Positions 25,251 to 44,575 are shown, numbered from the stretch's first letter. The stretch is 64,000 bases of DNA from an uncultured bacterium (GCA_937900255.1 CALCDZ010000002.1:9655-73654); one strand, 5' to 3'. Program-made: numbers and translations. The notes: a model not told the origin generated them from the sequence alone.

Positions 25251-25461
25251 GACGGCTCTCCTGAATGAACGTGTGGTGACATCTTGACATCGGGATAATT
25301 GTCTGTAAAGCGTCCGGGATGACTTTTGAGAATAGGTAGCACTTCTTGTTGTATTGATGCCAAGTCACGCAGATTGCTACCCGCAGCGTTGAGTTTTTGA
25401 CAGAATGGGGGGGTTCCATGTAAGTTGAAACAAGTTCATTTTGAACGGAAAGAGGATCGAA

Positions 25462-26190: not shown

Positions 26191-26197
26191 AATCCCT

Positions 26198-26554
26198 ATG
26201 CTTGAAGCGATAAAAAAAAACTTGACCCCAAACGCGACCAAGGTCGGTTTGTTCTTTGTCCTGATGACGACCATCGCACTAGGCATGCTGGACGGTTACT
26301 ACGCGTTCAGCGGTGAGCGACGCGCGCCGGAGGTGCTGGCCAGCATACTGCATGCCGCTCCGTGGTGGGTCATGTCGCTGCCCATCAACTTTCCCGGCCA
26401 GATGCTCCTCCTTCTTCTTCGAGAGTTGGGTTTTAGACCGAGCTTACTTGTGCAGCTATTGCTTGAAATGCCATTCACATACGTGCTGTCGTGCATCGTG
26501 ATCGCCCTCGTGGATAAAACGAGAGAATTCGGCAGCGACGCGGGTGCGAACTAA
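26198..26554 (+). CDS. Small 3-4 TM membrane protein (candidate partner/immunity protein)
   Basis: Starts 8 nt after the lipoprotein stop. Hydrophobic. A9 tract at 26212-26220 within codons 5-8. Confidence 0.5.
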   Translation: MLEAIKKNLTPNATKVGLFFVLMTTIALGMLDGYYAFSGERRAPEVLASILHAAPWWVMSLPINFPGQMLLLLLRELGFRPSLLVQLLLEMPFTYVLSCIVIALVDKTREFGSDAGAN

Positions 26555-26640: not shown

Positions 26641-28035
26641 ATGCCTCTCGACCTCGATCACCTTCACCGGATCCACTGCGTCGGCATCGGCGGCATCGGC
26701 GTTTCGGCCGTCGCCAAGTTCTTGCGGCTGCAAGGCAAGGAAGTGAGCGGTTCCGACGGGGCGCGCAGCGTGGTCACGGCCGATGCCGAACGCGTCGGCG
26801 TCTCCGTCTTCGATCCGTCGCCGGAAAACATCGCGCCGGACCTCGATCTGCTCATCTACACGTCGGCGGCGCCGGAGACGCATCCGGAACGCGAGGCGGC
26901 GGCCAGGTTCGGCATCCCGCAGCTCAGCTACTTCGAGTTCCTCGGATTGCTTTCGTCACGTCATCGGACGGTCGCGGTCTGCGGCACGAACGGGAAGTCG
27001 ACCACGACCGCGATGCTCGGCCTGATCCTGGAGCGCGCAGGACTCGACCCGCTCGTCATCGTGGGCAGTCGCGTGCCGACCTTTGAATACGGCAATCTTC
27101 GTCCCGGAGAAGGCGGGCTTCTCGTGGTCGAAGCCTGCGAATACCGCGAGCAGTTCATGAGCCTGTCGCCATCGGTGGTCGTGACGACCAAGATCGCGGA
27201 AGACCATCTCGACTACTACCGTGACTTGGCGCATATCCAGGCGACGTTCCGTGCCTTCGCTTCGAAACGGCCTGCGGACGGCCCGCTCATCTGGAACGCC
27301 GATGACGCGGGGAGTCGCGAAGCGTATGCGGGCATCGACGGTCCGAACGGCACCTTCGGGTTCTCGTCCGGCGCCGACCTGCGCGCGGAACGCCACGAGG
27401 TCTCCGCCGGTCTTCAGCGCTTCGACGCCGTCTGGAATGACGGTGTCGCCTGGCGGGGATTGGAGCTCGCAGTGCCGGGCGCCTTCAACGTGTCCAACGC
27501 GCTGGCCGCTCTCGGGGCCGCCCGTGCGCTCGGCGCGGACGAGGCATCCGCCCGTTTCGCGCTCGCGGGGTTCACGGGCATCTGGCGTAGGTTCGAGAAA
27601 GTGGGGGAACGCGATGGGGCTCCGATCATCTCCGATTACGGCCATACGCCGGACGCCATCGCGGCCACGCTCCAGGCCGCGCGCGATTTCTACCCTGGCC
27701 GCAAGATCGTCCTGGCTTTCCAGCCGCATCATCACGACCGCACGCGCAAGCTCTTCGACGCTTTCGTTCCCGCCTTCGACGGAGCCGATACGCTCGTCCT
27801 CTCCGAAATCTATGACGTGGCCGGACGCGAGGAAGGCGCGGGCACGATCTCGTCGCGAGCGCTGGTCGAGGCGATCGAGGCGCGCGGAGCCGTTCCGAGC
27901 GTCCGGTACGCGCCGGATCCGGCCGATGCGCTCCGGCAGCTCGAAGCGCTTGACGCTGAAAATGCCATCATGCTGGTCATGGGCGCAGGGGACATTTATT
28001 CCATTGCCTATCCGCTATGCCGACCGTCGAAATGA
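26641..28035 (+). CDS. murC: UDP-N-acetylmuramate--L-alanine ligase
   Basis: N-terminal HCVGIGGIGVSAVAKFL Rossmann, GTNGKSTT P-loop, and Mur ligase middle and C domains. Start at MPLDLD. Confidence 0.85.
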   Translation: MPLDLDHLHRIHCVGIGGIGVSAVAKFLRLQGKEVSGSDGARSVVTADAERVGVSVFDPSPENIAPDLDLLIYTSAAPETHPEREAAARFGIPQLSYFEFLGLLSSRHRTVAVCGTNGKSTTTAMLGLILERAGLDPLVIVGSRVPTFEYGNLRPGEGGLLVVEACEYREQFMSLSPSVVVTTKIAEDHLDYYRDLAHIQATFRAFASKRPADGPLIWNADDAGSREAYAGIDGPNGTFGFSSGADLRAERHEVSAGLQRFDAVWNDGVAWRGLELAVPGAFNVSNALAALGAARALGADEASARFALAGFTGIWRRFEKVGERDGAPIISDYGHTPDAIAATLQAARDFYPGRKIVLAFQPHHHDRTRKLFDAFVPAFDGADTLVLSEIYDVAGREEGAGTISSRALVEAIEARGAVPSVRYAPDPADALRQLEALDAENAIMLVMGAGDIYSIAYPLCRPSK

Positions 28036-30242: not shown

Positions 30243-31383
30243 GGTCCTGGTAGAGCTCCAGGGTGCTCGCGACCATGGATGAACCGGAGCGGCGTTCCGC
30301 GATGCGCGGGGCGCCGCTTTTCAGTTTTTGGGACAGGTCCTGACCGGCCAGGACGGAACGGATGGCGGAGACGAGCCTTTCGCGGTCGGCGGGCGGTATG
30401 AGAAGCCCCGTTTCCCCGTCCTCGATCAGTTCCGGCAGCGCGCCGACGCGGGTGGCGATGATCGGCACGCCGGCGAGCGAGGCTTCCAGGATCGCCCATG
30501 GCAAGCCTTCTTTCGTGGAGGGGAGGATGAAGAGGTCGAACGCCTTGAGTAGCCGGGCGGCGTCGGGCAGGGCGCCAGGCAGGCAGATGCGCGCGCGGTG
30601 GGCGAGGCCGGAACGGCGCGCCAGGAGTTCCGGCATCTTCGGGCCGTCTCCGATGACGACGAGATCGACATCAGGAAATTCTCCGGCGACCGCGTCGAAC
30701 GCTTCGAGCAGCATCGGAAGATTCTTTGCGGGATAGCTGTTGGCGATCGTGCCGATGATCCGTTCGAAGGCCGGCACCCCGCAAGCCTTGGAAAGTTCCG
30801 TAAGCGCGGCATCCCGTCCAAGGAAGGCGATCTCGTCCGGATCGATGCCGAGCGGAATGAGGTGCAGTCGAGCCGGAACGGAAAGATCCTTGTCCAGCGC
30901 GACGGCGCGTTCGGTCTCGGTCAATACGATGGTAGCGGAGCGCCAGAGCGACGCCAGCTTTTCGCTCGCGAGCATGAGCAGTCGGAACGGGAAAGGTCTC
31001 CGCTCCAAGAAACCCCAGCCATGGGCGGTGAAGATCAGGGCGGGACGTCGCTTCGAGAGCCGGACGGCCAAGGCTGCGATCAGGCCGGCCTTGCTGCTGT
31101 TGGAGTGAATCAGGGCGTACCCCTCCCGATCGATCATCTTTCGGACGGCGTTGACCGCTTTCAGGTCGTTCCATGGCGAGATCGGGCGGCGCAACGCCGG
31201 AATCTCGAAGGTCCGGATGCCGTTCGGAAGCGCCTTGAAAAGCTCGGATCGCGCAGAGGATCCGGCTGCGACCGTCACGTCGAATCCGGAACGCGCGGCG
31301 GCGGCCAGGCGCGCGACATAGCGCTCGGCGCCTCCCCAGGCCGAGGAGGTGATGAGATACAGGAGTTTCGGCTTGGCATCCAT
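30193..31383 (-). CDS. Glycosyltransferase family 4
   Basis: 396 aa GT-B. KLLYLITSSAWGGAERYV N-terminus and EGLPWAILEASLAGVPIIAT C-domain. Confidence 0.8.
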   Translation of the reverse strand: MDAKPKLLYLITSSAWGGAERYVARLAAAARSGFDVTVAAGSSARSELFKALPNGIRTFEIPALRRPISPWNDLKAVNAVRKMIDREGYALIHSNSSKAGLIAALAVRLSKRRPALIFTAHGWGFLERRPFPFRLLMLASEKLASLWRSATIVLTETERAVALDKDLSVPARLHLIPLGIDPDEIAFLGRDAALTELSKACGVPAFERIIGTIANSYPAKNLPMLLEAFDAVAGEFPDVDLVVIGDGPKMPELLARRSGLAHRARICLPGALPDAARLLKAFDLFILPSTKEGLPWAILEASLAGVPIIATRVGALPELIEDGETGLLIPPADRERLVSAIRSVLAGQDLSQKLKSGAPRIAERRSGSSMVASTLELYQDLMRRSRRFGLDSSRSK

Positions 31384-31424: not shown

Positions 31425-33650
31425 ATGAAAGTCGTCTTCGCCACCGGAATCTTCCCGCCCGACATCGGCGGACCGGCCGCCTCGGTCCCGTTGTTGGCGG
31501 AAGCTTGGAGCGCTCGCGGGCATGAAGTGACGGTCGTGACGTATGCGGACGCGCCGTCGGTCGCCGGAAACGATCCCGCTTATCGCGTCGTCAGGATTTC
31601 CCGCACGCTTCCGGTTTGGAGGCGGTACCCCGCGTTTTTCATGGCGTTGTGGCGCGCCTCGGCAGGGCCTGGCTCGATCTTCGCCCAGGACGGCGTCGCT
31701 TCCGGGGTGCCGGCGTTGATCGTCTCCCGTCTGCGCCGTCGGCGCCTGATCGTCAGGATCGCCGGAGATTTCGCGTGGGAGCGCGCGCAGGTGGCGCATG
31801 GGTACCGGGAATCGCTTGAGACGTTCCAGCGGGACCGGCGGCTCCCGCTCGGTCTCAGGGTCATCCGAGCGCTACAGCGTTCCGTCTTCCGGCACGCTCA
31901 CCTCGCGGTCGCGCCGAGCCGCTATCTTGCGGATGTGCTGCGCGGTTGGGGGGTGGGCGAGAACCGGATCCGCGTCATCCACAACGGGGTCGTCCTGCCG
32001 GACGTCATCCCTGCACACGGCACTCATCCTCGACGCATCGTCGCGTCCGCCCGGCTCGTGCCATGGAAGAACATCGACGTGCTCATCAAGGCGATGCCGG
32101 GCGTCCTGGCACGCGTGCCGGACGCGACCCTGCTGATCGTCGGAGACGGACCGGAACGGGAACGCCTCGAGGCACTCTCCGCGGCGCCGATGCTGAAAGG
32201 GAAGGTTTCCTTCGCCGGACGGATGGAGCGGAAGGATCTTCTTACGATCATCGCCGAAAGCGCGGTCTTCGCTTTGCCGAGTTCCTACGAGGGCTTTTCT
32301 CACCAGTTGGTGGAGGCGTTCGCCTGCGGAGCCGCCGTCGTCGCCAGCCGCGCCGGCGGCAATACGGAACTGGTCGCGGATGGCAAGAACGGTCTTTTGG
32401 TCGAACCTGGCGACGTCGTCGGGCTCTCGAAGGCCCTCATCCGCTTCCTTGAGGAGCCGGCTTTCGCTGAAGCCTGCGGACGGGAAGCGGCGAAGGGGCT
32501 TGCCGGTTTTACGGTCGATACGCAAATCGCCCGGACGACCGAGGCGGTCTTGGGCCGGCCCGGATTGCGCGTGGTGCTCGTGAGCCGCGACGGCACGGCG
32601 GCGGATCCTTCTTCGCGGACGGCGGCGCGCATGCGCGCCTATGGGGAGCGGGTCGACTTCCTGCATGTGGTCTGTCTCGCGAGACAGGAGCCGTCCTCCA
32701 TGCGGCTTTCGCCGCGCGTGCAGGTGGATGTCGTGGATGCGCGCACGGCGCTCCGTCATCCTTTGGCGCTGACCGGCGCCGTGAAAGATGCCGCCATTGC
32801 CTCGCAAGCGTCGCTCGTCGTCGCGCAGGACCCGTTCGAGGCCGGCGTATCCGCAGCTGCGGCCGCTTGGTCCGTCGGCGTGCCGCTCCTCGTCGAGGAG
32901 CATGGCGGCGTCTACCTTTCCCCGCATTGGAGACGGGAAAAGATCAAACATCGTCTGCTGCATCCGCTGGGACTCCTGGTCATGGGCCGCGCGGCCGGCC
33001 TGCGCGCCGTGAGCGCCAAGATCGAGGCCGACCTGCGCCGTCGCTGGCCGAAGATGCCGATCGCGCGCATCCCCGTCTATACCGAGCCGATCGCGTGCTA
33101 TCGCGAAGGCGCGCCGTACGTCTTCGGATACGTCGGGCGCTTCGTGCCGCAGAAAAAACTTGAGATGCTCCTTTCGGCTTTCGCTTCCGTCGTCCGTACC
33201 CGTCCAGAAGCGCGCCTTCTCATGGTCGGCGCCGGTCCTTCGGAAGCGGCATTGCGCGCCGAAGCGGAAGCGCTCGGTATCGGCGATCATGTGACGTGGC
33301 GGCCGTACAGCGAGCGCATCGTCGACGTCTTCAAGGAAATCGGCACCTTGGTCCTCTCGTCCCGGTACGAGGGCTGGGCGCGCGTCGTGCCTGAGGCGAT
33401 GTCCTGCGGCATTCCCGTGGTGATGACGGACGTCGGCTGCGCCGGCGAACTCCTGCGTAACGGCGTCGAAGGCTACGTGACCCCGATCGACGACGCGGGC
33501 ATCTTGGCTCAAGCCATGCTCAAGATCTCCGATCCGCACCAGCATGCGCTCATGAGCGCGGCCGCCAGGCGCCGCTCGGAAACTTCCGCGACGCCCGAAG
33601 ACCTGGCCGGGCGCCTCATCGGTTTCTGGAAGGAGGTGGCTGGCCTATGA
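31425..33650 (+). CDS. Tandem double GT4 glycosyltransferase (two GT-B modules fused)
   Basis: 741 aa. Two E-x7-E-type C-domains (EGFSHQLVEAFACGAAVV and EGWARVVPEAMSCGIPVV). Confidence 0.75.
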   Translation: MKVVFATGIFPPDIGGPAASVPLLAEAWSARGHEVTVVTYADAPSVAGNDPAYRVVRISRTLPVWRRYPAFFMALWRASAGPGSIFAQDGVASGVPALIVSRLRRRRLIVRIAGDFAWERAQVAHGYRESLETFQRDRRLPLGLRVIRALQRSVFRHAHLAVAPSRYLADVLRGWGVGENRIRVIHNGVVLPDVIPAHGTHPRRIVASARLVPWKNIDVLIKAMPGVLARVPDATLLIVGDGPERERLEALSAAPMLKGKVSFAGRMERKDLLTIIAESAVFALPSSYEGFSHQLVEAFACGAAVVASRAGGNTELVADGKNGLLVEPGDVVGLSKALIRFLEEPAFAEACGREAAKGLAGFTVDTQIARTTEAVLGRPGLRVVLVSRDGTAADPSSRTAARMRAYGERVDFLHVVCLARQEPSSMRLSPRVQVDVVDARTALRHPLALTGAVKDAAIASQASLVVAQDPFEAGVSAAAAAWSVGVPLLVEEHGGVYLSPHWRREKIKHRLLHPLGLLVMGRAAGLRAVSAKIEADLRRRWPKMPIARIPVYTEPIACYREGAPYVFGYVGRFVPQKKLEMLLSAFASVVRTRPEARLLMVGAGPSEAALRAEAEALGIGDHVTWRPYSERIVDVFKEIGTLVLSSRYEGWARVVPEAMSCGIPVVMTDVGCAGELLRNGVEGYVTPIDDAGILAQAMLKISDPHQHALMSAAARRRSETSATPEDLAGRLIGFWKEVAGL

Positions 33651-34693
33651 GGATACTCGTCGTCACGCAGGCCGTCGACGCGGATTCCTCCACGCTCGGC
33701 TTTTTCGTGGAATGGCTCCGCGAGTTTTCGGGGCGCTGCGAGCGCGTGGACGTCATCGCGCTTTCGGTCGGACGGCATGACTTGCCCGCGAACGTCCGCG
33801 TCGTCTCGATGGGTAAGGAACGTGGCATCGGCAGGCTGGGACGCCTGCTGGCATATTGGAGGCATCTTCTGAAGCTCTTGCCGGAAACGGACGGTGTCTT
33901 CATCCATATGTGCCCGGAGTACCTGCTCGCAGGATGGCCGCTTCTCGTTTTCAGGCGCTTGCCGACCGTATTTTGGTACGCGCATCGTTCCAGGAACCTT
34001 CTCGCACGCGCGGCGATGCCGCTCGCCACCCATCTGGCGACGAGCGTTCCCGGAGCCGTCACGCTTGCTGCGGCCAACATCCGGTTCCTTGGGCAGGGGA
34101 TACCGACGGAGCTGTTCCGTCCGCTCCCGCTCCTCGTCGGGTCTCCGTTCAGGCTCGTGGTCGTGGGCCGCATCACGCCTATCAAGCGGCTCGATCTGCT
34201 GATCGACGCCCTGGCCCTTTTGCGGGGGCGCGGCATCGACGCTGCGCTCGAGTTCTGGGGAGAGCCGGCCGCGGCAGGCGACGCGGCCTATGCCGTTTCG
34301 TTGCGGGAAAGGGCCGTAGCCGCGTCGGTTTCTGGAAGAGTGCGCTTCCTCGGGAGAGTGCCGTTCGCGCGTATGCCGGAAAAATACGGCGGGGTTTCCG
34401 TCGCCTGGAACGCCTGCGCGGATGGTGCCGTCGACAAGGCCGTGCTTGAAGCCATGGCTTGCGCCAGGCCGGTCGTGGTGACGAATCACGTCTTTTCCGG
34501 CACGTTCGGACCGGATGCGGATGCATGTCTGGCCGACGGGACGGCGGAGTCCATCGCGGAAAAAACGGCGAAGATCCTGTCGGGCCCCGGCGGGCTGGCG
34601 CTTGGACTTCGCCTGCGCGAGACGGTCGTGGCCCATCATGGCCTTCCTGGCCTCGTGAACGGCATCATCGATCTGATGGACTCCAAGCGTTAA
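33647..34693 (+). CDS. Glycosyltransferase family 4
   Basis: 348 aa. MRILVVTQAVD N-terminus. 4-nt overlap with the upstream gene. Confidence 0.75.
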   Translation: MRILVVTQAVDADSSTLGFFVEWLREFSGRCERVDVIALSVGRHDLPANVRVVSMGKERGIGRLGRLLAYWRHLLKLLPETDGVFIHMCPEYLLAGWPLLVFRRLPTVFWYAHRSRNLLARAAMPLATHLATSVPGAVTLAAANIRFLGQGIPTELFRPLPLLVGSPFRLVVVGRITPIKRLDLLIDALALLRGRGIDAALEFWGEPAAAGDAAYAVSLRERAVAASVSGRVRFLGRVPFARMPEKYGGVSVAWNACADGAVDKAVLEAMACARPVVVTNHVFSGTFGPDADACLADGTAESIAEKTAKILSGPGGLALGLRLRETVVAHHGLPGLVNGIIDLMDSKR

Positions 34694-35460
34694 CGGCGCA
34701 GAAGGATCCTCCACGGCAACAGGGCGGATTCCAGGATGACGGCCTTGCTGATTTTTGATGTGCCGTGCGTCCGATCCTTGAAGGTGATAGGGAGTTCCTT
34801 CGGCACATATCCTGCCAGCACGGCGGCGAGCTTCGTTTCGACCGCGAAGGCGTATCCGTCGGATTTCGGGTCGGCGGCCATGACCCGTTCAAGCGCGTTC
34901 CGGCTCCAGGCGGCGAAACCGGAGGTGGCGTCATGGATGCGGAACCTGGGATGACGAAGCCTGATGATGGCGCTCGCGTAGAGATTGGCCCAACGGCTCA
35001 GAAGACGCCGGTGCAACGGCCAATCCCGACATGCACCGCCGGAGACGTAGCGCGAACCGATGGCGAATCCCGACTCACGTGCCATCGCCGTCAGCGCTGG
35101 GACCTTTTCCGGTCCGTGGGAGAAGTCGGCGTCCATGCTGACGACTACGTCGTAGCCCGTCTCATGTCTCAATATCCATCGGAAGGCGTCGGTATAGGCC
35201 GTGCCCAGGCCTAATTTCCTCGGACGACGCATCAGCAGGACGCGCATCGGAGCCGAGGAAGCGGCGATTTTTGCGGCCTCGGCCGTGCCGTCAGGGCTGC
35301 CGTCATCGACGATGAGGAGGTCGGCCTCGCTCCGCAGTCCGATCGCTTCGATGAATGCGCGAATGTCCTGGCGCTCGTTGTAGGTAGGCACGACGATAAG
35401 CGCCCTGCCGGCAGAGCGATCGTTCAGCCCTTCCACGGAGATGATACGTTCGGAAATCAT
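34690..35460 (-). CDS. GT2 polyprenyl-phosphate sugar synthase (ArnC/GtrB/DPM1-like)
   Basis: LIVVPTYNERQDI...LIVDDGSPDGT...VVSMDADFSHGP (DXD). True start is ATG 35460, overlapping the stop of the upstream GT-C gene. The 633-aa ORF 34690..36591 is rejected as a single gene. Confidence 0.75.
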   Translation of the reverse strand: MISERIISVEGLNDRSAGRALIVVPTYNERQDIRAFIEAIGLRSEADLLIVDDGSPDGTAEAAKIAASSAPMRVLLMRRPRKLGLGTAYTDAFRWILRHETGYDVVVSMDADFSHGPEKVPALTAMARESGFAIGSRYVSGGACRDWPLHRRLLSRWANLYASAIIRLRHPRFRIHDATSGFAAWSRNALERVMAADPKSDGYAFAVETKLAAVLAGYVPKELPITFKDRTHGTSKISKAVILESALLPWRILLRR

Positions 35461-36833
35461 TCGTGCGGAACGTTTTTCTTCGTGCTCCAGGCATCCGATA
35501 GGCGCCAGAAAGCGGAAGCGGCCATGACGGCCATGATCGAATCGAACGGGACGCGATATTTCGTGCCGGGAGTGGTGATGACGTAGGTCAGCGTGAAGGC
35601 CAGCGCCAGAGCGATGAACAAGACCGTCCGCTTGCGCTCCTCCCTGGATTCCAGCGCGACTTCGAGCAGCGAGAGCGTCAGCAGGAACCCGTAGCTCAGC
35701 GCGTAGCCCCAATTCATGAAGCTGTCCGAAAGGATGACGGCACCGTTGCCGCCGACCGCTCCCTTGGGCGGATACATCCATGGGTGCCACAGCAGGAGGA
35801 ACTTCATCCCGAAGAGCCCAGGCAGTTCGGGGGCGTGGGCGCGCATCCAGCCGCGCGCCTTGGCGTACCAGAAGCGGTCCGCTTCCGGTTCGCTGCGGCC
35901 TTGCATGAAGGCACAACCGGATTTCCGGACGCCATCCATCGGCGTCGGGATGCCGTCGGCCGGTTCGGGGGTGGCGTCGATCCAAAGGTCGTTCAGCAGC
36001 ATCCGCATCGCGAGTGGGTTGTAGTCCTTGTGGAAGACGCGGCCTCCATCGGTCGTGAGCGGGACGAACGCGCGGTGGACCGCATAGTTCCGGATGACCC
36101 AGGGCGTCATGACGAGCAGCGCCGAGATCCCCATGACGCATGAGAAGCGAAGCGCTTTCCTGAAGGAGCCCCAGCGCCACCAGAGCCATACGGAGGCCAG
36201 GGGTGCGAAAAAGACCATCGGACCGCTGGTCGCGAGCATCGCCAGGCCGATCCAGAGGCCGTTCAACGCCGCGGTGCCGGTTTTCGGCACGCGTTCCAGG
36301 CGGAGGAGCCCCAGCGTCGCGAGCAGCATCAGGAACGTGAACAGGAAGGTGATGTAGAACTGGGTGTCGTGGTAGAGGTTGTACGGATAGACGGCCATGA
36401 ACAGCGCGCCGAGGAGGCCGACGCGCTTGGAGCGCCATTCCTTGCCGATCAGGTAGACCAGCCAGATGCTGGACAGACCGATCGCCATCTGCGCCAAGCC
36501 GAGCGGCCAGGCATAGCGCGTCGTGCCGAAGACGGCGTAGAAGGGGATGAGGAACAGGATGTAGAGCGGCGCGCGGTACGAGGTCGGGCAATCCCTGGCG
36601 ATGCCCATGCCGTGGCCGGCGACGAAGTTCATCGCTGGGTAGGCGAAGCCCTTCTCGATGCGCGTGGTCAGCTCAGAGTGGAAGGCGAAGAGGAATCCGA
36701 GCCGCAGGATGAGCGCGAGCCCGAGGATGGCGAACAATAGGATATCGGCGTTCCGCTCGACCCGTTCTCCGATCGGCGTATGGCCGTCGCGCATGTCCCT
36801 CCATGCCTCCTGAAGTTTGAGCAGGGGGTGCAT
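35457..36833 (-). CDS. GT-C membrane glycosyltransferase (ArnT/PMT-like, GT39/GT83)
   Basis: 458 aa with about 11 TM. N-terminal first-loop acidic region, typical of ArnT/Pmt. Coupled by ATGA overlap to the GT2 synthase. Confidence 0.75.
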   Translation of the reverse strand: MHPLLKLQEAWRDMRDGHTPIGERVERNADILLFAILGLALILRLGFLFAFHSELTTRIEKGFAYPAMNFVAGHGMGIARDCPTSYRAPLYILFLIPFYAVFGTTRYAWPLGLAQMAIGLSSIWLVYLIGKEWRSKRVGLLGALFMAVYPYNLYHDTQFYITFLFTFLMLLATLGLLRLERVPKTGTAALNGLWIGLAMLATSGPMVFFAPLASVWLWWRWGSFRKALRFSCVMGISALLVMTPWVIRNYAVHRAFVPLTTDGGRVFHKDYNPLAMRMLLNDLWIDATPEPADGIPTPMDGVRKSGCAFMQGRSEPEADRFWYAKARGWMRAHAPELPGLFGMKFLLLWHPWMYPPKGAVGGNGAVILSDSFMNWGYALSYGFLLTLSLLEVALESREERKRTVLFIALALAFTLTYVITTPGTKYRVPFDSIMAVMAASAFWRLSDAWSTKKNVPHE

Positions 36834-36903
36834 ATATCAGCATGAGTATATCGGAACAAGTGCGGCTTCGCAACGCCGGAAGACCTGGTATACTGGAGCC
36901 GTT

Positions 36904-37632
36904 ATGCGGAAAATCCTTCGGGAAGCACGGGCGAAAGCGAGGCTTCTCATGGGCGGCAGCCGGTGCCGTCCGACCATCCTCATGTACCACTCGGTCGGCC
37001 GCAACGCCGCCCACTTCAACGTCACCCCCGAGGCTTTCCGCGCCCAAATGGCCTTCCTGAAAGAGCGCGGCTTCGAGGTCGTCACGCTCGACGAGTGCGT
37101 CCGCCGGGCCATGGCGGGGGAGACGGGCAAGATCGTCGCCCTGACCTTCGACGATGGGTATGCGGATTTCCCGAAGGAAGCTTGGCCCGTGCTGAAGCTA
37201 TACGGATATCCGGCCGTCGTTTTCCTGATCACGGGCCTCATGGGCGGGGGCTACACGACTTCGACAGGCGTCACGATCCCGCTCATGACTTGGGACGTGG
37301 CGGAATTCCTGAAAAAGGAGGGCGTCTCCTTTGGGTCGCATACCGTGACGCATGCCGAACTCGACACGCTTGCCGGCGAGGATGTCGCGAAGCAGTTGGT
37401 CGAATCGCGTGTCGATCTGCGCGAACATCTGGATGTGGAAGCGCGCTGGCTGTGCTATCCGCGCGGCAAAGAGTCGCCTGCCGTCCGCGAATCGGCCAGG
37501 TCGGCTGGGTATGTCGGCGCGGTCACGGTCAAGGCGGGGCATCCGGCTCCCGACACCGATACCTACGGCCTTCCTCGCGCGTATGTGCATTCCGAAATGG
37601 GGATGAAAGAATTTGAGGCGTTGTTCGTATGA
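36904..37632 (+). CDS. Polysaccharide deacetylase (NodB homology domain; ArnD/PgdA-like)
   Basis: TFDDGY...HTVTHAELDTL NodB motifs. Start at MRKILRE. Confidence 0.8.
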   Translation: MRKILREARAKARLLMGGSRCRPTILMYHSVGRNAAHFNVTPEAFRAQMAFLKERGFEVVTLDECVRRAMAGETGKIVALTFDDGYADFPKEAWPVLKLYGYPAVVFLITGLMGGGYTTSTGVTIPLMTWDVAEFLKKEGVSFGSHTVTHAELDTLAGEDVAKQLVESRVDLREHLDVEARWLCYPRGKESPAVRESARSAGYVGAVTVKAGHPAPDTDTYGLPRAYVHSEMGMKEFEALFV

Positions 37633-38234
37633 AGACCGTTTACCGGCGCCTGATGAACGCGCGCCTGAGGCCGATCTTGGCGGGCCTGCGCGGCAGGGTA
37701 CTCGACCTGGCTTCCGGCGCGGCGCCTTCTTATCGGGCGTTTTTCAATCCGAGAGCGGAAGCGGTCAATGGCGACGTGAGCGAAGACCAAGGCGTCGAGC
37801 GTATCGATTTCGATGCGCTGCTGCCGTTCGCGGACGCGTCTTTCGACCATGCTCTCTGCATCAATGCGCTGTATATCGCCAAGTACCCGGGTTTTACGCT
37901 TGGGGAACTGCGGCGCGTCACACGTGCCGGCGGGACGCTCACGGTCGCGGTGCCGTTCGTCTTTCCGGAAGCGCCCGAACCGCACGACTACGCCCGTTGG
38001 ACATCGGAAGGTTTGAGGTCATTGCTGGTCGCTGCGGGCTTCCATGACGTGGCGATAGTCCCGTTCGGCGGGCATTTCACCTCCGCCCTGTTCATCGTCG
38101 AGCCGTTCATGGTCTTCCGGCCGCTGAAATTCCTGGCGCAGGAATCCGCCCTGTTGCTGGACCGCCTCGTCCCGGCGCGCTACCGTGCGGCCAGGCCGTG
38201 CCCGCTCGGGTACGTCGCCATCGCGAAACGCTGA
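37629..38234 (+). CDS. Class I SAM-dependent methyltransferase (Methyltransf_11-like)
   Basis: VLDLASGAA motif I. 201 aa. 4-nt overlap with the deacetylase. Confidence 0.7.
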   Translation: MKTVYRRLMNARLRPILAGLRGRVLDLASGAAPSYRAFFNPRAEAVNGDVSEDQGVERIDFDALLPFADASFDHALCINALYIAKYPGFTLGELRRVTRAGGTLTVAVPFVFPEAPEPHDYARWTSEGLRSLLVAAGFHDVAIVPFGGHFTSALFIVEPFMVFRPLKFLAQESALLLDRLVPARYRAARPCPLGYVAIAKR

Positions 38235-38236: not shown

Positions 38237-38899
38237 ATGACAGACACGATCGAAGGGCTCTTCCAGGAAGGATACTGGGGCTCATGGGACCAAATCGAGA
38301 CGTTCCGGCACCGTGCCGCCGCGCGCCTCGTGCGCCAAGGTCCTGTGCTTGACGTCGGTGCCGGCGACGGCTTCTTTCTCGGCTTGCTGAAGAAGGAACG
38401 CGGCATCGAAGGCAGAGGCATCGATCTCTCCGCGGTGGCCGTCGAGAAAGCCGCAAAGAAAGGGATCGATGTGCGGGTGGCGGACCTCTCGCGCGAAAAA
38501 CTGCCGTTCACCGACGGTTCATCCGCGACGGTCGTCCTGCTCGACGTCCTCGAACATTTTTTCCGGCCTGAACAGCTCCTGGCGGAAGTCGCGCGCGTGA
38601 CCTCCTCGGACCTCGTCGTCTCGGTGCCGAACTTCTCCTCGCTCCCTGCGCGCCTGCAGGTCCTGCGTGGCCGTGTGCCGGAAAACAATACTCCGCGCAA
38701 AGGGCATGTCTATTGGTTCACATGGGGGAAATTGAGGAAGATGCTCGATGACTCCGGTTTCGAAGTCATCGACGCGCGTTTCAACGCGAATTTCGAACGG
38801 CTCCCGTTCGTTGGCGGGGTGTTCCGACAGCTGGCCGCCCGCTTTCCGTCCCTCTTCGCCCTTTCATTCGTGGTCTTGGCACGCAAGCGGGCCGTATGA
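38237..38899 (+). CDS. SAM-dependent methyltransferase (MetW-like)
   Basis: VLDVGAGDGFF motif I, and LLDVLEHF. Start at MTDTIEG, right after the preceding stop. Confidence 0.65.
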   Translation: MTDTIEGLFQEGYWGSWDQIETFRHRAAARLVRQGPVLDVGAGDGFFLGLLKKERGIEGRGIDLSAVAVEKAAKKGIDVRVADLSREKLPFTDGSSATVVLLDVLEHFFRPEQLLAEVARVTSSDLVVSVPNFSSLPARLQVLRGRVPENNTPRKGHVYWFTWGKLRKMLDDSGFEVIDARFNANFERLPFVGGVFRQLAARFPSLFALSFVVLARKRAV

Positions 38900-41196
38900 G
38901 ACTCGTCTACATCGCCAACGTCCGTTTGCCGACCGAAAAGGCGCACGGCGTGCAGATCATGCAGATGTGCGCGGCCTTCGCGTCGAACGGGCATGAGGTC
39001 ATGCTGATCGTGCCTGGGCGCCGTAATGCCATCGCGGCGACTCCGTGGGAGTACTATGGTCTCAAACGGAACTTCCGGATCGTGACGGTACCGGTCCTCG
39101 ACTTCATCCCGTTCGATCGCTGGCTCGGCAACGCTGCGTTGTGGTTGACGACCGTCGGATTCGCCTTCGGCGCGCGTAGGGTCGTTGCGGACGCGCGGCC
39201 TGATGCCGTCTACTCGCGGGACGCCGTCCTCGTGACGACCGTGCCGAAGGGCGTGCCCTTCGTCTTTGAAGCGCACGATTTTCCGACGAGGCCCTGGCTC
39301 TATCGGTTCCTATGGAAGGCGTGCTCCCGTATCGTCACCGTGACGGAAGGGCTGAAGCGCGCTTTCATCGCCGCCGGAGTGCCCGAGACCAAGCTGGTCG
39401 TCGCGCATGACGCCGTCGATCCAGGTATTTTTCAGGTATCGGAAAGCAAGGCGGAGGCGCGGCGCGCGCTTGGGCTGCCCACCGAGGGTTTCATCGCCGT
39501 CTACTCCGGCCATCTCTATCCTTACAAGGGGGCCGACGATCTGCTCGAAGCCTGTCTGCATCTGCGCCCAGCTTCGCGAGTGGTCTTCGTCGGTGGACGC
39601 CCTGAAGAAGTCGCCAGGCTGCGGATGCAGGCCGAAAAGCTCGGTGTCACGAACGCCTTTTTTGTCGGGCAAGTGCCTCACGGACTCATCCCGATGTATC
39701 TGCGGGCCGCCGATGGGGCCGTCCTGCCGACGCGTGATACGGATCGGCATGCGTCCGAATTCCTCTCGCCTCTCAAGCTGTTCGAGTATCTGGCCGCCGG
39801 GAAAGCCATCGTCGCCACCGACCTGCCATCGATCCGGGAAGTGTTGGACGAGAATACGGCCGTTTTCGTGCCGCCCCGGTCGCCGGAGGCTTTGGCCGCC
39901 GCCCTGAACGGCCTGGCGGACGTTCCCGTTGAAGCCGAACGCCTGTCTCGGGAAGCGGAAGCCCTGTCGAGGGACTGCACGTGGGTCCATCGCGCTGGAC
40001 GCGTGCTTTCGGGAACGGACGAACCGCAGCCCTCGCTGACCTGGCTGCGGCGGCATCGCGCCGTGCTGGCCTGCATGCTCTTGGCGTTCATCCTGCGCGC
40101 CGCGTATGTCCTCGCGTTCCCGCTGAGACTGGCAGGAGGCGATGGCGAACTGTACGTCGGGTATGCCGACCTCCTCCGCGGGATTCCGGCTTGGTCGCCG
40201 CGCATGTACGCCTACTTCCAGCCCGGCTACCCGATCTTTCTCGCGGTCATCCGTAGCTTGTTCGGTACCGACCTTGTCGCCGTCGGCCTGTCTCAGGCCG
40301 TCATTTCCGCGCTCACGGTCGGCCTCGTGACGGCCATGACGCGGAAACTGGTCGGGGCGCGCGCGGCCGTTTTTGCCGGGCTCATGTCGGCCGTCTCCGC
40401 TTCCTCCATCGTCGAGACCGGGCAGATCTATACCGAAACGCTGTATACGTTCCTGTTGACCGCCGCCGTCTGCGCGCTCCTCGTGGATGCGCACCATCGC
40501 GCCATGCGTCATGCCGCCATCGTCGGTGCATCGTTCGCGCTCGCCGGCTTCGTCCGCGAACTCGCTCTGTATCACGCTGCCCTTCTTGCCGCCGTGACCG
40601 GCATCGGCAAGCGGTCGTGGCGGCCGGTCGTCGGCATCATGGCGCCCGTCGTCGTCATGCTTCTCGTTTTTGGCGCGTATAACCGTACGGTCGCCGCCGG
40701 GCAGGCGGTTCCGCGCGTGCCGATCCTCGCGAAGGGATATGAGGCTACGCTTCAGGACCCGGCTTCGCAGGCCTTCCTCCTGCGCTGGCGGATGTATCCG
40801 CTCGGCCTCTGGTATTTCTTCCGCTATCCGCATCGGTTCGCCGACATCAGCGACCAGGTCTCGACGCGGCAGGCGCTCTTTTCCGGAGACGCCGCCTTGA
40901 TCGGCAGGGAAGCGCCGTACATCCTGGCGAAGGGTCTGCTGACGCTCCTGCATTGGATGATACTGGTCTTGGCGGCCTATGGTCTTTGGCGCGGACGGAT
41001 GCCGCGCGAGGCGAAGATCGTCATCTCCGTGACGATCGCCTTCGCGGCTGCTACGATAACGCTTTCCGGGGCAGCGCGGCTTCAAGGCTTCGAATACCTG
41101 GAGCCGTTGGCCCGTTATCGTTTCCCGGTCGAACCGCTCATCATGATCCTGGCGGCGGCGGGGGCCGAACGCTTCTTAAAGAACGAGACGACGTAA
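38896..41196 (+). CDS. Fusion protein: GT4 glycosyltransferase (GT-B) + polytopic GT-C (PMT_2/ArnT-like) domain
   Basis: 766 aa. Residues about 1-370 form a GT-B (EFLSPLKLFEYLAAGKAIVAT). Residues about 380-766 have 10 or more TM helices (RRHRAVLACMLLAFILRAAYVLAFPL...). Confidence 0.7.
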   Translation: MRLVYIANVRLPTEKAHGVQIMQMCAAFASNGHEVMLIVPGRRNAIAATPWEYYGLKRNFRIVTVPVLDFIPFDRWLGNAALWLTTVGFAFGARRVVADARPDAVYSRDAVLVTTVPKGVPFVFEAHDFPTRPWLYRFLWKACSRIVTVTEGLKRAFIAAGVPETKLVVAHDAVDPGIFQVSESKAEARRALGLPTEGFIAVYSGHLYPYKGADDLLEACLHLRPASRVVFVGGRPEEVARLRMQAEKLGVTNAFFVGQVPHGLIPMYLRAADGAVLPTRDTDRHASEFLSPLKLFEYLAAGKAIVATDLPSIREVLDENTAVFVPPRSPEALAAALNGLADVPVEAERLSREAEALSRDCTWVHRAGRVLSGTDEPQPSLTWLRRHRAVLACMLLAFILRAAYVLAFPLRLAGGDGELYVGYADLLRGIPAWSPRMYAYFQPGYPIFLAVIRSLFGTDLVAVGLSQAVISALTVGLVTAMTRKLVGARAAVFAGLMSAVSASSIVETGQIYTETLYTFLLTAAVCALLVDAHHRAMRHAAIVGASFALAGFVRELALYHAALLAAVTGIGKRSWRPVVGIMAPVVVMLLVFGAYNRTVAAGQAVPRVPILAKGYEATLQDPASQAFLLRWRMYPLGLWYFFRYPHRFADISDQVSTRQALFSGDAALIGREAPYILAKGLLTLLHWMILVLAAYGLWRGRMPREAKIVISVTIAFAAATITLSGAARLQGFEYLEPLARYRFPVEPLIMILAAAGAERFLKNETT

Positions 41197-41228: not shown

Positions 41229-41972
41229 ATGAAAGAGGCGATATTTTACGACGATTCGTACTTCCAGGCATTGGAGAATCGTTACTTCTTAGGGGCGCAT
41301 GGTGAACGCGTCAGGGATATCGTGTCTTTCCTCCCATCCAGGAAACACGTCCTTGATTATGGTGCCGGCAGCGGTTACTTCGCATTCCGCGCTCTACAGC
41401 TTGAAAATACCGTCGTTGCGTTCGATTTTGCGCCGGCGGCAGTGCAATACATGCGGTCGCACTATCCGACGCTTGAAATCGTCGAACGGAAGGATGCCTT
41501 GAAGGGGGTGTATGACACGATTCTTCTGAACGACGTGATCGAGCACGTCGACTACTCTGAGCAGGCTTCTTTCATCTCCAATCTCCGGGAGCACTTGAAA
41601 GCAGGCGGTCGATTGATTGTCGCGACCGATAATTTTGACTCGTTCTTCTTCAGGGGCCGTCTCGGTAAAAAATGTCTAGCGATCGATCAGCGCATTTCTC
41701 CAGAAGGCATCATTTATAGGGCCATTAAAAAGGGTGAGACGGAACGTCCTTATTACCACAATGCCTATAATGATTCCCATGTCGGATTACTTGGGCGCGA
41801 CAAATTGGTTCGACTTTTCAAGAGCCAAGGCTTTGAGCTCGTTCGCGAAAAGCACGGTTTTCTCTTTCGTACTTACGTTTCCCGCCTTATCAGCGCATGT
41901 TTTGGGCTCAGGCCACTGCATTCCGTCTATGAGTTCACTTTGATGGCAGAGACCCTCCCGCGTTCAAGGTAG
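41229..41972 (+). CDS. Class I SAM-dependent methyltransferase
   Basis: VLDYGAGSGYFA motif I, and LLNDVIEHV. Local GC is about 50%, lower than the neighbours. Confidence 0.65.
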   Translation: MKEAIFYDDSYFQALENRYFLGAHGERVRDIVSFLPSRKHVLDYGAGSGYFAFRALQLENTVVAFDFAPAAVQYMRSHYPTLEIVERKDALKGVYDTILLNDVIEHVDYSEQASFISNLREHLKAGGRLIVATDNFDSFFFRGRLGKKCLAIDQRISPEGIIYRAIKKGETERPYYHNAYNDSHVGLLGRDKLVRLFKSQGFELVREKHGFLFRTYVSRLISACFGLRPLHSVYEFTLMAETLPRSR

Positions 41973-43257
41973 GCGACGCGTTTTTCGAGGCCTCAGGTTC
42001 CACGTTTAAGATTTTTCGGACAAGAAGCGTTGAATGAAGAAGCCCGAAGATACGAGCGAGGGTTCTTGCGCAGATCGCGCCGAGCAGCCCCCATTTCCAG
42101 ACAAAAAGTGCAAGAGACACGATGCTGATCGCAGACATCGAAACCTGGTAGTGGAGGTTCTCCTTATATCTCATGTGTCCATTGAAGACCGCTACCGGGA
42201 GCGCGGAGGCGATGCCGAGCAGTGATATGGAGAAGATCTGTGAATATGGTATGGCTTCGGCGTACCCGGGAAAAAGCTGCCGATAAATCTGTGGAGCCAC
42301 TAGGACGTAAACGATGATGACGCTGCCGATGGCGGCGATCAACAGGAAGAGTTTTCGGAAGAAAGTCGGCCGTATTTCATTGAGCGGTCGCGCAGCGACT
42401 TTTGGGAGCGCCATCACGTACAGGTTTTTCAGATAGCCTTTGAGCTGCTCTGGCGGAGCGATGGCAAAAGCGTAGACGGCCGTCTCGTGGGAACCGAGCA
42501 GTGTGAAGATCAGGATACGGTCGAGATAATTGGAGATCGAAGAGGCGACATCCAGGAGCGTCAGATTCTTGCCGAAGCGGAGCGCATCGTCCGAAGCCTC
42601 GCCCTTCGGCGGCAGGCGCCGCAGCGTGGCGCCGAGCGCGATGGCGTTCCAGGCCAGCGAGGAAAGGCAGAACCCGAGCGTCAGCGCGATGACCGTCGGG
42701 TGCAGGAGCAGGATCGCGACGACGACGGCGGCCGTTCCGAGCGTCGAAGCGATCCCGTAGCGCGTCTGCAATCCGAAGGCTTTCCGGCCGTTGGCATAAT
42801 CGCCCCAAGAGGAGAGCGCCGAGATGGCGGGAAAAAAGACGGCGACGATCAGGAAGCCCCAGAAGAGATCCGTGCGTCCTTTCGAGAGGTAATATGCGCC
42901 GACCGCGAGTCCGCCCAAGGTGCCGATGCCGGCCCACCGCAGGCGCATCTTCAGGACCGCGTAGATCGTCCTTTCATGGCCTTGCGCGACGGCGCGCGTC
43001 AAAGCATCGGACGTTCCCGTGACGGATGCGATGGCGAGGATCGATCCCCAGGAGAGCAGGTACTGATACGTGCCGTAGACGCCCTTGCCGAGCAAGCGGG
43101 CGAACAGCATCGCCAGGGCCAAGCTCGAGGCCGAACCCATGAACGACGCGATCGACAGGAAAATCCCGCCCTTCGCCAGATAGACGTTGTCGGTACCGGT
43201 ATAGCGTTCTCCTCGGCGCAGGAGGCGGATCGCCAGGAGTTTCAGTCGCTGGAGCAT
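41935..43257 (-). CDS. wzx: Wzx-type polysaccharide flippase (MOP/PST family)
   Basis: 440 aa, 12-14 TM. N-terminus ...GIFLSIASFMGSASSLALAMLFARLLGKGVYGTYQYL is typical of Wzx/RfbX. Confidence 0.8.
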   Translation of the reverse strand: MLQRLKLLAIRLLRRGERYTGTDNVYLAKGGIFLSIASFMGSASSLALAMLFARLLGKGVYGTYQYLLSWGSILAIASVTGTSDALTRAVAQGHERTIYAVLKMRLRWAGIGTLGGLAVGAYYLSKGRTDLFWGFLIVAVFFPAISALSSWGDYANGRKAFGLQTRYGIASTLGTAAVVVAILLLHPTVIALTLGFCLSSLAWNAIALGATLRRLPPKGEASDDALRFGKNLTLLDVASSISNYLDRILIFTLLGSHETAVYAFAIAPPEQLKGYLKNLYVMALPKVAARPLNEIRPTFFRKLFLLIAAIGSVIIVYVLVAPQIYRQLFPGYAEAIPYSQIFSISLLGIASALPVAVFNGHMRYKENLHYQVSMSAISIVSLALFVWKWGLLGAICARTLARIFGLLHSTLLVRKILNVEPEASKNASPTLNAGGSLPSK

Positions 43258-43264: not shown

Positions 43265-44575
43265 TCACCGGCCTTTCCTCTTCAGGACGCTGTAGATCGT
43301 CTTGAGGACGATGGCGGCGTCGAGGGTCAGCGAGCGGTATTTCAGGTAATAGAGATCGTGCCGCAGCTTCAGCAGGTGGTCTTCATGGGTGGCCGCATAC
43401 GGAGCGCTGACCTGCGCCCACCCGGTCAGCCCGGGGCGTACCAGGTGCCGGACGGGGAAGAGCGGGATGGTCTTCGCGAGTTCGGCCTCGACTTCGGGCC
43501 GTTCCGGGCGCGGGCCCACGAAGCTCATATCGCCGCGGAGGATGTTCCAGAGCTGGGGCAGCTCGTCCAGCCGCGTGGCGCGGAGGAAGCGCCCGAAGCG
43601 GGTGACGCGCGGGTCGTTCTCGGTCGCGAAGGCGATGCCGTCCTTTTCGGCGTCGACGCGCATGGTGCGGAACTTCAGCATGGTGAACGGCCGCCCGCCC
43701 TTTCCGACGCGCGTCTGGCTGTAGAAAGCCGGTCCGCGGCTTTCGATGCGGATGATCGCGGCGATCAGCGGCGCGACCGGCAGCGAGGGGATGCAGAGGA
43801 GGATGGATGCCACGACGTCGAACAGGCGCTTGGCATGTTCATACATCGGCGAATCCTGTCCGGCCAGATTATCGACGATCCAGCGCTCATCGAGGGCCGA
43901 TTCCGGTACGGCATGGCGTATCTTCTCATAGAACGTCGGGAGATCGACGATGGCGGCGCGTTCGAAGAATTTGCGGTAAAGACGGGTCGTCAGCGCGGCG
44001 TTGCCTTGCAGCCGGCGGGACACGACGATCAGGTCGCAGGCCGGGAGTTCCCGAACGGACGATTCATCCGCCACGCCCAGGCAGCTGTAGCCGAGATGCG
44101 GATTCTGGGACAGGACTTCCCCCAATCCTGCGTCTTCCCCGAGGAACAGCACGCGCAGATGGAATCGCCGCCGCGAGAACAGGTGCAGGGCCAGGATCCT
44201 CCAGCCATAGAACAGCCCGGCGAAGAGCGCGGTCGCGAGCAGGAGATTGGTCTTCGGGGCGATGCCGATGCCCGGCATGAAATAAAAGACGGCCAACGAG
44301 AGCAGGAACGCCGCCGCGAGCGCCTCCGCCGTACGCGAAGCCAGCTCGATACGGCCGCGCACCGCGTCGTCATCGTACAGGCCGACGACGTAGAAGACGG
44401 CGAGCCAGATGACGAAAGCGAAAGTGAACGGCTTGGCATGCATCGCCCACCAGGCCGGAAAATCCTGCCCATCATGCCGCGAGAGCAGCGTCAGCCATAA
44501 CGCCAAATAGGCGAGCGCGAGGTCTCCGGTCGCCAAGAGGGCCATCCTGAGTTTGCGGGAGTCGGTCATCCCCAC
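43265..44575 (-). CDS. Polyprenyl glycosylphosphotransferase (WbaP/bacterial sugar transferase family initiating PGT)
   Basis: N-terminal 4-5 TM. C-terminal Bac_transf domain (...PGLTGWAQV...). Ends ...LKTIYSVLKRKGR. Confidence 0.85.
   Translation of the reverse strand: MGMTDSRKLRMALLATGDLALAYLALWLTLLSRHDGQDFPAWWAMHAKPFTFAFVIWLAVFYVVGLYDDDAVRGRIELASRTAEALAAAFLLSLAVFYFMPGIGIAPKTNLLLATALFAGLFYGWRILALHLFSRRRFHLRVLFLGEDAGLGEVLSQNPHLGYSCLGVADESSVRELPACDLIVVSRRLQGNAALTTRLYRKFFERAAIVDLPTFYEKIRHAVPESALDERWIVDNLAGQDSPMYEHAKRLFDVVASILLCIPSLPVAPLIAAIIRIESRGPAFYSQTRVGKGGRPFTMLKFRTMRVDAEKDGIAFATENDPRVTRFGRFLRATRLDELPQLWNILRGDMSFVGPRPERPEVEAELAKTIPLFPVRHLVRPGLTGWAQVSAPYAATHEDHLLKLRHDLYYLKYRSLTLDAAIVLKTIYSVLKRKGR

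Follow-up and report, generated by a model that had tools for sequence, protein, structure and literature searches.

A single-chain GT4 and GT-C glycosyltransferase fusion in a glycan gene cluster of Patescibacteria

We describe here a gene on a 64,000-nucleotide (64-kb) stretch of DNA from an uncultured bacterium (GCA_937900255.1, CALCDZ010000002.1:9655-73654). The whole stretch is called the window below, and all positions are counted from its first letter. On the forward strand the window encodes a protein in which a GT4 glycosyltransferase domain, of the GT-B fold, is joined through a short linker to a polytopic membrane domain of the GT-C superfamily. An earlier note, made from the sequence alone, had claimed a single polypeptide of 766 amino acids (aa) at 38896-41196, and a scan of open reading frames (ORFs) gives exactly such an ORF. 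The gene and its parts are as follows, with transmembrane helices abbreviated as TM.

38896..41196, + strand: the fusion gene (GT4, linker and GT-C), a single 766-aa ORF with an ATG start; Pfam GT4 and PMT_2 domains; about 48 full-length homolog clusters
38896..39435, + strand: N-terminal Rossmann lobe of the GT4 domain (residues 1-180); PF13439 and PF13579, motif 'RLPTEKAHGxQIMxMC', invariant E125/H127
39436..40008, + strand: C-terminal, nucleotide-sugar-binding lobe of the GT4 domain (residues 181-371); PF00534 and PF13692, with alignments to 3c4q, 2gej and 6kih
40009..40059, + strand: inter-domain linker of 17 aa (residues 372-388), variable (37% mean identity), with the basic 'WLRRHR' at its end, where TM1 starts on the predicted cytoplasmic side
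40030..41178, + strand: GT-C membrane domain (residues ~379-761), ten TM, predicted N-in/C-in, from the helices of AlphaFold2 (AF2) models, Foldseek and a profile match to ArnT (5ezm)

The ATG of the fusion gene shares 4 bp (ATGA) with the stop codon of the methyltransferase gene upstream. Both GT4 Pfam domains exceed their gathering scores, Glyco_transf_4 at residues 19-176 (E 1.6e-13) and Glycos_transf_1 at residues 185-355 (E 2.6e-22), and so does PMT_2 (PF13231) at residues 443-592 (E 1.5e-7, 32.2 bits against a gathering score of 26.1). A full-length AF2 model, built on a 38-sequence alignment of the family, has a mean predicted local distance difference test score (pLDDT) of 89.7 and a predicted template modelling score (pTM) of 0.72, with two Rossmann lobes followed by a helical bundle. 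The NCBIfam models find only generic GT4 similarity in the fusion (stp3, WcaI, TuaC/H, MshA), all far under the equivalog cut-offs, and the C-terminal half has a single weak match, to a Leptospira 'putative glycosyltransferase' family. A 591-aa ORF on the opposite strand, at 39310-41085, was rejected as coding, since it is the usual antisense artefact of a genome with 63% G+C.

A missed stop codon or frameshift near 40000-40050, about which the earlier note had cautioned, is not found between the halves, and the family alignment is continuous through the junction apart from the short variable linker. The junction itself (nt 40009-40059) is free of homopolymer runs, and its alternative frames do not resemble coding sequence. 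NCBI, ENA and Logan assemblies contain the identical 766-aa protein on three or more contigs, the longest of 162 kb. It can be dismissed almost with certainty that an assembly or sequencing artefact joined two neighbouring genes, and we reject this explanation because the same ORF recurs in independent assemblies, in about 48 clusters and in 9 species genomes, with no homopolymer at the junction. In the 38-sequence alignment, mean pairwise identity is 57-59% for the GT4 lobes, 41-52% for the membrane domain and 37% for the linker. Thus, the two halves are conserved to a comparable extent, each under purifying selection, and the tether between them is short and variable.

Homologous fusions were found in a search of 5.8 billion proteins. 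They form the roughly 48 clusters, with 42-67% identity, 98-100% query coverage and lengths of 758-891 aa. Although the window protein is in the public collection, the first homology search gave no self-match, a clustering artefact due to the 50-aa fragment that represents its 90%-identity cluster. In a species-level scan, with one genome per species and 185,579 species, there are 11 orthologous loci, 9 of them complete, and all nine complete loci have a single ORF with the GT4 motifs and the GT-C half. The fusion had been described as uncommon, which is fair as a statement about ortholog counts only, i.e., 11 loci among these genomes. Databases label the fusion merely 'glycosyltransferase', and the few named homolog records read 'MAG: glycosyltransferase [Patescibacteria group bacterium]', where MAG stands for metagenome-assembled genome. 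We found no description of a GT4 and GT-C fusion, or of its family, in the searchable literature. The record titles of the orthologous loci name Patescibacteria, Minisyncoccota and Candidatus Paceibacter. Six fusion-bearing third-party annotation (TPA) MAGs (L009, L010, L012, L013, L016 and L018) are automatically titled 'uncultured Gammaproteobacteria bacterium'; these titles are probably taxonomic mislabels in the source records. For Patescibacteria, the overall G+C of the window (about 63%) is high. Scans of the 64 kb for tRNA genes and for Rfam families at the gathering threshold gave no match.

The N-terminal half had been claimed to hold a complete GT4 Rossmann-pair domain. This is borne out by the Pfam GT4 domains, which are complete, and by the best full-length structural matches, which are retaining GT4 enzymes. 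When the full-length model is compared with the PDB in Foldseek, only GT4 enzymes are among the matches listed (the best 50). They include MshA, GlgM, PimB', HepE, PglA, PimA, WaaG and BshA at E values of 1e-14 to 1e-10, and the target-normalised TM-scores of MshA, GlgM, PimB', PglA, PimA and WaaG are 0.7-0.78. Strands alternate with helices in the AF2 secondary structure of this half. At the residue level, 'GHLYPYKG' aligns with the phosphate-binding motif (R...K-G) of MshA, PimA and sucrose-phosphate synthase, K211-G212 falling on the K-G of these three enzymes, and FEYLAAGKAIVATD aligns with '(V/M)EAMAAG...'. K211 is present in 33 of the 38 sequences; the exceptions are three sequences with Q211, which carry R206, and two with T211, which retain H206. 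At the position of the canonical GT4 Arg, 34 of the 38 have His (H206). E297 in 'SPLKLFEY', the second Glu of an EX7E-like motif, is kept in 35/38, while the first Glu is variable and the spacing is 8 residues, not 7. Judged by these residues, the donor site of the GT4 domain is slightly unusual, but the domain is very probably active. The motifs 'RLPTEKAHGxQIMxMC' and 'SPLKLFEY' are signatures of a GT4 subfamily that is modular: some relatives at 34-39% identity stand alone, and others are joined to another GT4, to methyltransferases or to a GtrA_DPMS_TM domain with 4 TM.

For the remaining ~390 aa, ten or more TM helices with a resemblance to PMT_2 and ArnT had been claimed, and we find about 10 TM and a relationship by both sequence profile and fold. 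Hydropathy and two AF2 models give a helical bundle, which we read as 10 TM helices plus two juxtamembrane helices in external loop 1. In the predicted layout, TM1 (379-407) is followed by the loop-1 juxtamembrane helices (417-427 and 444-456), TM2-TM7, external loop 4 (604-672) and TM8-TM10. Clusters of K/R lie at the predicted inner helix ends (WLRRHR, TRKL/AR, HHRAMRH, GKRSWR, WRGRMPREAK and ERFLK). These basic ends fit an N-in topology, in which the GT4 domain would be cytoplasmic and the acidic loop 1 of the GT-C domain would be external.

The model of the C-terminal half has a pLDDT of 83.4 and a pTM of 0.86. Its high-probability Foldseek matches are all GT-C enzymes, with ArnT the best (E 2.8e-5, TMq 0.56). 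The probability is 1.00 for ArnT, STT3/AglB/PglB, ALG3/9/12, Pmt1/2/4, AftB and Emb (EmbA/B), and 0.90 for PimE; ALG6 is also matched, and transporters of the major facilitator superfamily reach at most 0.13. Using the membrane half as a single sequence, phmmer gave no match among PDB sequences. With a 14-sequence profile, the sole PDB sequence match is ArnT of Cupriavidus metallidurans (5ezm/5f15; E 5.6e-4). Among 1.84 billion representatives, searched exhaustively with a profile, a tight ortholog group stands out, with 25 matches at E<=1e-30, the full-length ones nearly all fused. Below this group the scores drop sharply, and there follow thousands of PMT_2 proteins that stand alone, about 400 aa long, which are the nearest non-fused relatives. 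A profile search of a word-indexed database with the same half recovered few of the known fusions, and the exhaustive search was the more informative.

Conserved positions of the membrane half are as follows.

40135..40170, + strand: external loop 1 motif G414-G-D416-G-E-L-Y420-V-G-Y-A-D425; D416, Y420 and D425 invariant in 38/38
40429..40440, + strand: 'YTET' (residues 512-515) at the outer start of TM4; E514 invariant in 38/38, aligned to ArnT D158
40555..40560, + strand: R554-E555 ('TRELG') in external loop 3 after TM5; R554 invariant in 38/38, aligned to ArnT K203
40705..40911, + strand: external loop 4 (residues 604-672, 69 aa) with short helices; R630, P645 and R647 invariant
41113..41127, + strand: 'RYRFP' in the last external loop, just ahead of the last TM; R740, R742 and P744 invariant

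The acidic GT-C loop motif (DE/DD), which the earlier note had singled out as a point to check, is present as the invariant D416 of 'GGDGxxYxxxAD'. In a profile alignment corrected for a 3-residue offset of the deposited chain, D416 ('GGDGELY') falls on ArnT D55 ('GPDEGRY'; D55-E56), the next residue being Gly and not Glu or Asp. ArnT D55/E56 is the loop-1 active-site position common to all GT-C enzymes compared, D158 touches the substrate or sugar, and K203 is the salt-bridge partner of D158 (PMC7801869). We suggest that D416 is the putative catalytic or acceptor-binding Asp. External loop 4 would by its position match the flexible periplasmic loop PL4 between TM7 and TM8 of ArnT. STT3 and TMTC enzymes have a conserved phosphate-binding Arg in external loop 5 (EL5), their last external loop (PMC7801869). 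By analogy of position with that Arg, to which it is unaligned, 'RYRFP' may hold a candidate lipid-phosphate-binding Arg (R740/R742). From their conserved residues, both halves look catalytically competent.

A catalytically dead membrane half, which would serve as an anchor or scaffold to tether the GT4 domain to the membrane, is very unlikely in view of these positions. Other members of the GT4 subfamily do have a simple 4-TM GtrA-like domain at the same place. However, while mean identity in the membrane domain is only 41-52%, nine D, Y, E and R residues (D416, Y420, D425, E514, R554, R630, R647, R740 and R742) are invariant in all 38 sequences. Three of these nine correspond to functional residues of ArnT, and a stand-alone GT-C ortholog exists. 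We rejected the idea of a dead anchor, since the invariant residues of the membrane half are functional ones.

This stand-alone ortholog, P0139, has 399 aa, is 40% identical to the membrane half over its full length, and is found on three independent metagenomic contigs. It retains GGD..Y..AD, YTET, TREIG and RYRFP. The longest contig with the split form, L003:3-4561 (JGI 3300006904 Ga0075424_100031730), carries in order a GT4 gene, a carbamoyltransferase, a 140-aa ORF, DUF5989 and then the stand-alone GT-C gene. Its GT4 gene is 63% identical to fusion residues 82-373 and stops four residues past the linker position. The carbamoyltransferase cassette seems to have been inserted exactly at the domain boundary. 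Because the natural split keeps both genes in one locus, the halves can work separately and yet stay linked. The split form is strong comparative evidence for a common pathway of both halves. It also argues against a need for covalent coupling, so the link is not obligatory.

Larger and alternative fusions are found in the same subfamily. P0048 (L002:8001-10676, 891 aa) is a triple fusion of GT4, GT-C and GtrA_DPMS_TM, and the sister proteins P0050, P0053, P0054, P0055 and P0064 combine GT4 with GtrA_DPMS_TM without a GT-C domain. GtrA is the flippase family of polyprenyl-phosphate sugar systems. By analogy with these systems, the GtrA-type domain of P0048 favours a monosaccharide-phosphate-lipid donor for the GT-C half.

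The fusion gene lies in a glycan cluster at about 28-47 kb of the window, with synteny in five related loci (L001, L002, L006, L007 and L008). The neighbouring genes are as follows, where SAM stands for S-adenosylmethionine.

28017-30242, + strand: Wzy_C-like protein of 741 aa, part of the conserved cluster
30193-31383, - strand: GT4, conserved cluster
31425-33650, + strand: tandem GT4-GT4 protein of 741 aa, conserved cluster
33647-34693, + strand: GT4 with a Pfam match in the C-lobe only, conserved cluster
34690..35460, - strand: GT2 resembling polyprenyl-phosphate sugar synthases by its best models (AglJ, PpgS, ArnC, Dol-P hexose transferase)
35457..36833, - strand: stand-alone PMT_2 GT-C, distantly paralogous to the GT-C half of the fusion (23% identity, hhalign probability 96%)
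36817-37632, + strand: polysaccharide deacetylase, upstream of the fusion
37629-38234, + strand: methyltransferase, upstream of the fusion
38237..38899, + strand: MetW-like SAM methyltransferase, translationally coupled to the fusion (4-bp overlap); a homolog adjoins the fusion in 8/14 loci
41229..41972, + strand: class I SAM methyltransferase, directly downstream of the fusion
41935..43257, - strand: Wzx-type flippase (Polysacc_synt)
43265..44575, - strand: polyprenyl glycosylphosphotransferase (PGT; Bac_transf, TIGR03025 over its cut-off)

WecB and a further GT4 complete the cluster. In a tblastn matrix of 14 related loci, PGT accompanies the fusion most constantly (12 of the 14, 56-70% identity), followed by the GT4 with the C-lobe match and the MetW-like methyltransferase. 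The deacetylase and methyltransferase pair is likewise upstream in L008 and L009. The GT2 and PMT_2 pair (34690-36833, - strand) lies on the opposite strand within the cluster and resembles a classic module of donor synthase and GT-C. The pair is accessory, as only L012 among the 14 loci has both genes and L016 has PMT_2 alone. Judging from its best models, the GT2 at 34690-35460 is a possible source of the lipid-linked donor in this genome.

The 741-aa Wzy_C-like (O-antigen ligase/polymerase-like) protein is about twice the usual size, with a Pfam match to residues 206-359 only and syntenic versions of the same size in L006 and L008. The tandem GT4-GT4 protein has 739-773 aa in L001, L002, L007 and L008 and is apparently split in L006 into genes of 565 aa and 159 aa. 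Sugar-modifying genes that vary across the loci encode aminotransferase, hexapeptide acyltransferase, oxidoreductase, AsnB-like and CoA-ligase/citrate-lyase-like proteins. Between the GT4 genes of L001 and L006 (~3.7-7.5 kb) there are citrate-synthase-like, CoA-ligase/succinyl-CoA-synthetase-like, ATP-grasp, DegT aminotransferase and hexapeptide acyltransferase genes, which are absent from this window. This extra set suggests an acylated amino sugar in the glycan of those loci. Window positions 24000-26200 have a G+C of 0.57 against ~0.63 elsewhere, with a Cys/Trp-rich 249-aa ORF (25441-26190, + strand) and a Lys/Pro/Ala-rich 131-aa ORF (24855-25250, - strand). This patch may be a foreign or fast-evolving surface-protein region.

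A common pathway for the two halves is supported because PGT adjoins the fusion in 12/14 loci and because the GT4s, Wzy_C-like protein, Wzx, methyltransferases and deacetylase are syntenic. Alternatively, both domains could be active on different glycoconjugates, with a fusion that is neutral or merely regulatory and makes no pathway link. Domain fusions in small genomes can indeed be neutral, and this GT4 subfamily is promiscuous in its fusion partners. Nevertheless, we regard separate pathways as unlikely, since all 9 complete species-level loci have kept the fusion, at identities as low as 42%, the split variant still holds both genes together, and both halves lie within one syntenic glycan cluster.

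We suggest that the fusion is truly bifunctional, a glycosyltransferase with one active site on each face of the cytoplasmic membrane, and that it serves one surface-glycan pathway in a small clade of Patescibacteria. For the whole of this proposal, including the steps that follow, we estimate a probability of about one half. The GT4 domain would add one residue from a nucleotide sugar to a polyprenyl-diphosphate-linked oligosaccharide at the inner face. Wzx would flip the glycan, and the GT-C domain, with a polyprenyl-phosphate sugar as donor, would then transfer a monosaccharide to that glycan or to its final acceptor. The donor could be supplied by a GT2 such as that at 34690-35460, or in relatives by one encoded elsewhere. 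The fusion would mainly serve to anchor GT4 in the membrane at its lipid-linked substrate, fix a 1:1 stoichiometry and co-localise the two activities, with no obligatory chemical coupling. We favour chain extension for the GT4 domain, since its structural matches glycosylate hydroxyl acceptors, several of them lipid-linked (PimA, PimB', PglA, WaaG and MshA), and since its nearest NCBIfam models are exopolysaccharide (EPS) and O-antigen GT4s (stp3, WcaI, TuaC/H). Transfer on the outside from polyprenyl-phosphate sugars is the mode of ArnT, GtrC, GacL and YfhO-type enzymes (PMC11127046). Extension inside coupled with transfer outside fits the gene context.

Three observations weigh against this proposal. 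Most members have His (H206) in place of the canonical GT4 Arg, which makes the active site of this domain somewhat atypical. A small ad-hoc hidden Markov model of low sensitivity detected no GtrA-like ORF in the 64 kb of the window. In addition, a GT2 polyprenyl-phosphate sugar synthase is not conserved near the fusion and is absent within 10 kb of it in L001, L006 and L007.

The donor of the GT-C half could instead be made by the GT4 domain itself, for example as a polyprenyl-phosphate sugar with retention or as a glycolipid, then flipped and used by the fused GT-C domain, in a self-contained Gtr-like system. We consider this doubtful, though there are indirect hints of it. The same GT4 subfamily is repeatedly fused to GtrA_DPMS_TM, an architecture typical of polyprenyl-phosphate sugar synthases, and P0048 joins GT4, GT-C and GtrA in one chain. 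Syntenic clusters are without a conserved GT2 synthase, the phosphate-binding motif of the GT4 domain is atypical (H206), and its 'SPLK' motif is unusual. However, to our knowledge there is no precedent for a GT4 that glycosylates a lipid phosphate, and the nearest characterised relatives all transfer to hydroxyl groups. Some members of the subfamily are joined to another GT4 or to methyltransferases, which is expected of a chain builder, the carbamoyltransferase cassette parts the GT4 and GT-C genes in the split variant, and a synthase-type GT2 is already in this window.

If the GT4 domain did make the lipid-linked donor, it would be a new enzyme class in polyprenyl-phosphate sugar synthesis. 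A retaining GT-B would then replace the universal inverting GT2 synthase of a Gtr/Arn-like system, with the lipid charged inside and the sugar transferred outside by one polypeptide; we see little chance that this is so. In that event, P0048 with its GtrA domain would hold all three steps in one chain, and donors of the opposite anomeric configuration would give linkages out of reach of the canonical systems.

The GT-C half could also be an en-bloc transferase, like an oligosaccharyltransferase or ligase, which would move a finished polyprenyl-diphosphate glycan, its last sugar added by the fused GT4, onto a protein, lipid or cell-wall acceptor. STT3, AglB and PglB are among the best fold matches, no polyprenyl-phosphate sugar synthase is conserved locally, and it would be logical to join the last cytoplasmic step with the final transfer. 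We are nonetheless sceptical of this explanation, because the sequence resembles ArnT/PMT_2 and not STT3. The fusion has no STT3 Pfam match at E<=0.01, no WWD or WWDYG-type motif and no soluble periplasmic domain, and the chain stops 5 residues past TM10. Furthermore, a Wzy_C-type ligase or polymerase is already encoded in the cluster, and the GtrA domain of P0048 points to monosaccharide donors.

The fusion resembles several known systems in part. It shares with ArnT (GT83; 5ezm/5f15) and PMT_2/PMT proteins (GT39) the N-in orientation, which is predicted here, a loop 1 with a juxtamembrane helix and a conserved Asp, and the counterparts of D158 and K203, and with ArnT a long external loop after TM7. 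ArnT, however, has 13 TM and a periplasmic domain, whereas the GT-C half has 10 TM in ~385 aa at about 16% identity; loop 1 has 'DE' in ArnT and 'GGDGxxY' here, and only here is a GT4 fused. Three-component systems include GtrA/GtrB/GtrC, CsbB/GtcA/YfhO, GacI/GacK/GacL and ArnC/ArnEF/ArnT (PMC11127046). As in these, the GT-C domain is expected to take a sugar from a polyprenyl-phosphate donor and attach it on the outside, a synthase-type GT2 lies 3.4 kb upstream, and P0048 has a GtrA domain. Unlike in these, the fused partner is a GT4 (GT-B) and not a GT2 synthase, the GT2 is not conserved with the fusion, and the search for a GtrA-like ORF in the window gave none.

The GT4s of stepwise glycan assembly (PimA/PimB', PglA/PglH/PglJ, WaaG, WcaI and the EPS GT4s) give the best structural and profile matches and occur in the same setting of PGT, Wzx and GT4 genes. 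They are peripheral proteins without TM, whereas the GT4 studied here is tethered to a polytopic enzyme, has His for the canonical Arg and carries 'SPLKLFEY'. In the mycobacterial pathway of phosphatidylinositol mannosides, lipomannan and lipoarabinomannan (PIM/LM/LAM), GT4s likewise act inside (PimA/PimB') and GT-Cs outside (PimE/MptA/MptB), and PimA, PimB' and PimE are among the fold matches. There, the enzymes are separate proteins in a phosphatidylinositol-based route, while here there is one chain in a PGT-initiated cluster. The polyprenyl-phosphate mannose/glucose synthases built from GT2 and GtrA_DPMS_TM, such as archaeal dolichyl-phosphate mannose synthase (DPMS), also join a cytoplasmic Leloir glycosyltransferase to a C-terminal membrane domain that handles polyprenyl lipids, and the sister GT4s share the GtrA_DPMS_TM C-terminus. 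Those synthases have the GT-A fold, in contrast to the GT-B fold of the fusion, whose membrane domain is itself a glycosyltransferase.

Both superfamilies, GT4 and the PMT_2/ArnT-like GT-C enzymes, were already known, as was the logic of GT4 inside and GT-C outside, which is also found in O-antigen and teichoic-acid modification (PMC11127046). What is new is a covalent GT-B and GT-C architecture fixed in a small clade of Patescibacteria, with a natural split counterpart and a compact 10-TM GT-C domain without a periplasmic domain. The most probable role of the fusion is a conventional one.

As a rule, Leloir glycosyltransferases of the cytoplasm and outward-facing GT-C enzymes are separate proteins, and their cooperation in one pathway has to be worked out genetically. 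The fusion together with its split form is a Rosetta-stone link, which indicates joint action of one particular GT4 subfamily with one particular small GT-C subfamily. With 766 aa, the protein is compact and a candidate for structural and biochemical work on the coordination of inside and outside steps in surface-glycan assembly. Patescibacteria are uncultivated and mostly epibiotic, and the chemistry of their envelope probably matters for attachment to the host. The fusion marks a conserved surface-glycan locus in these bacteria.

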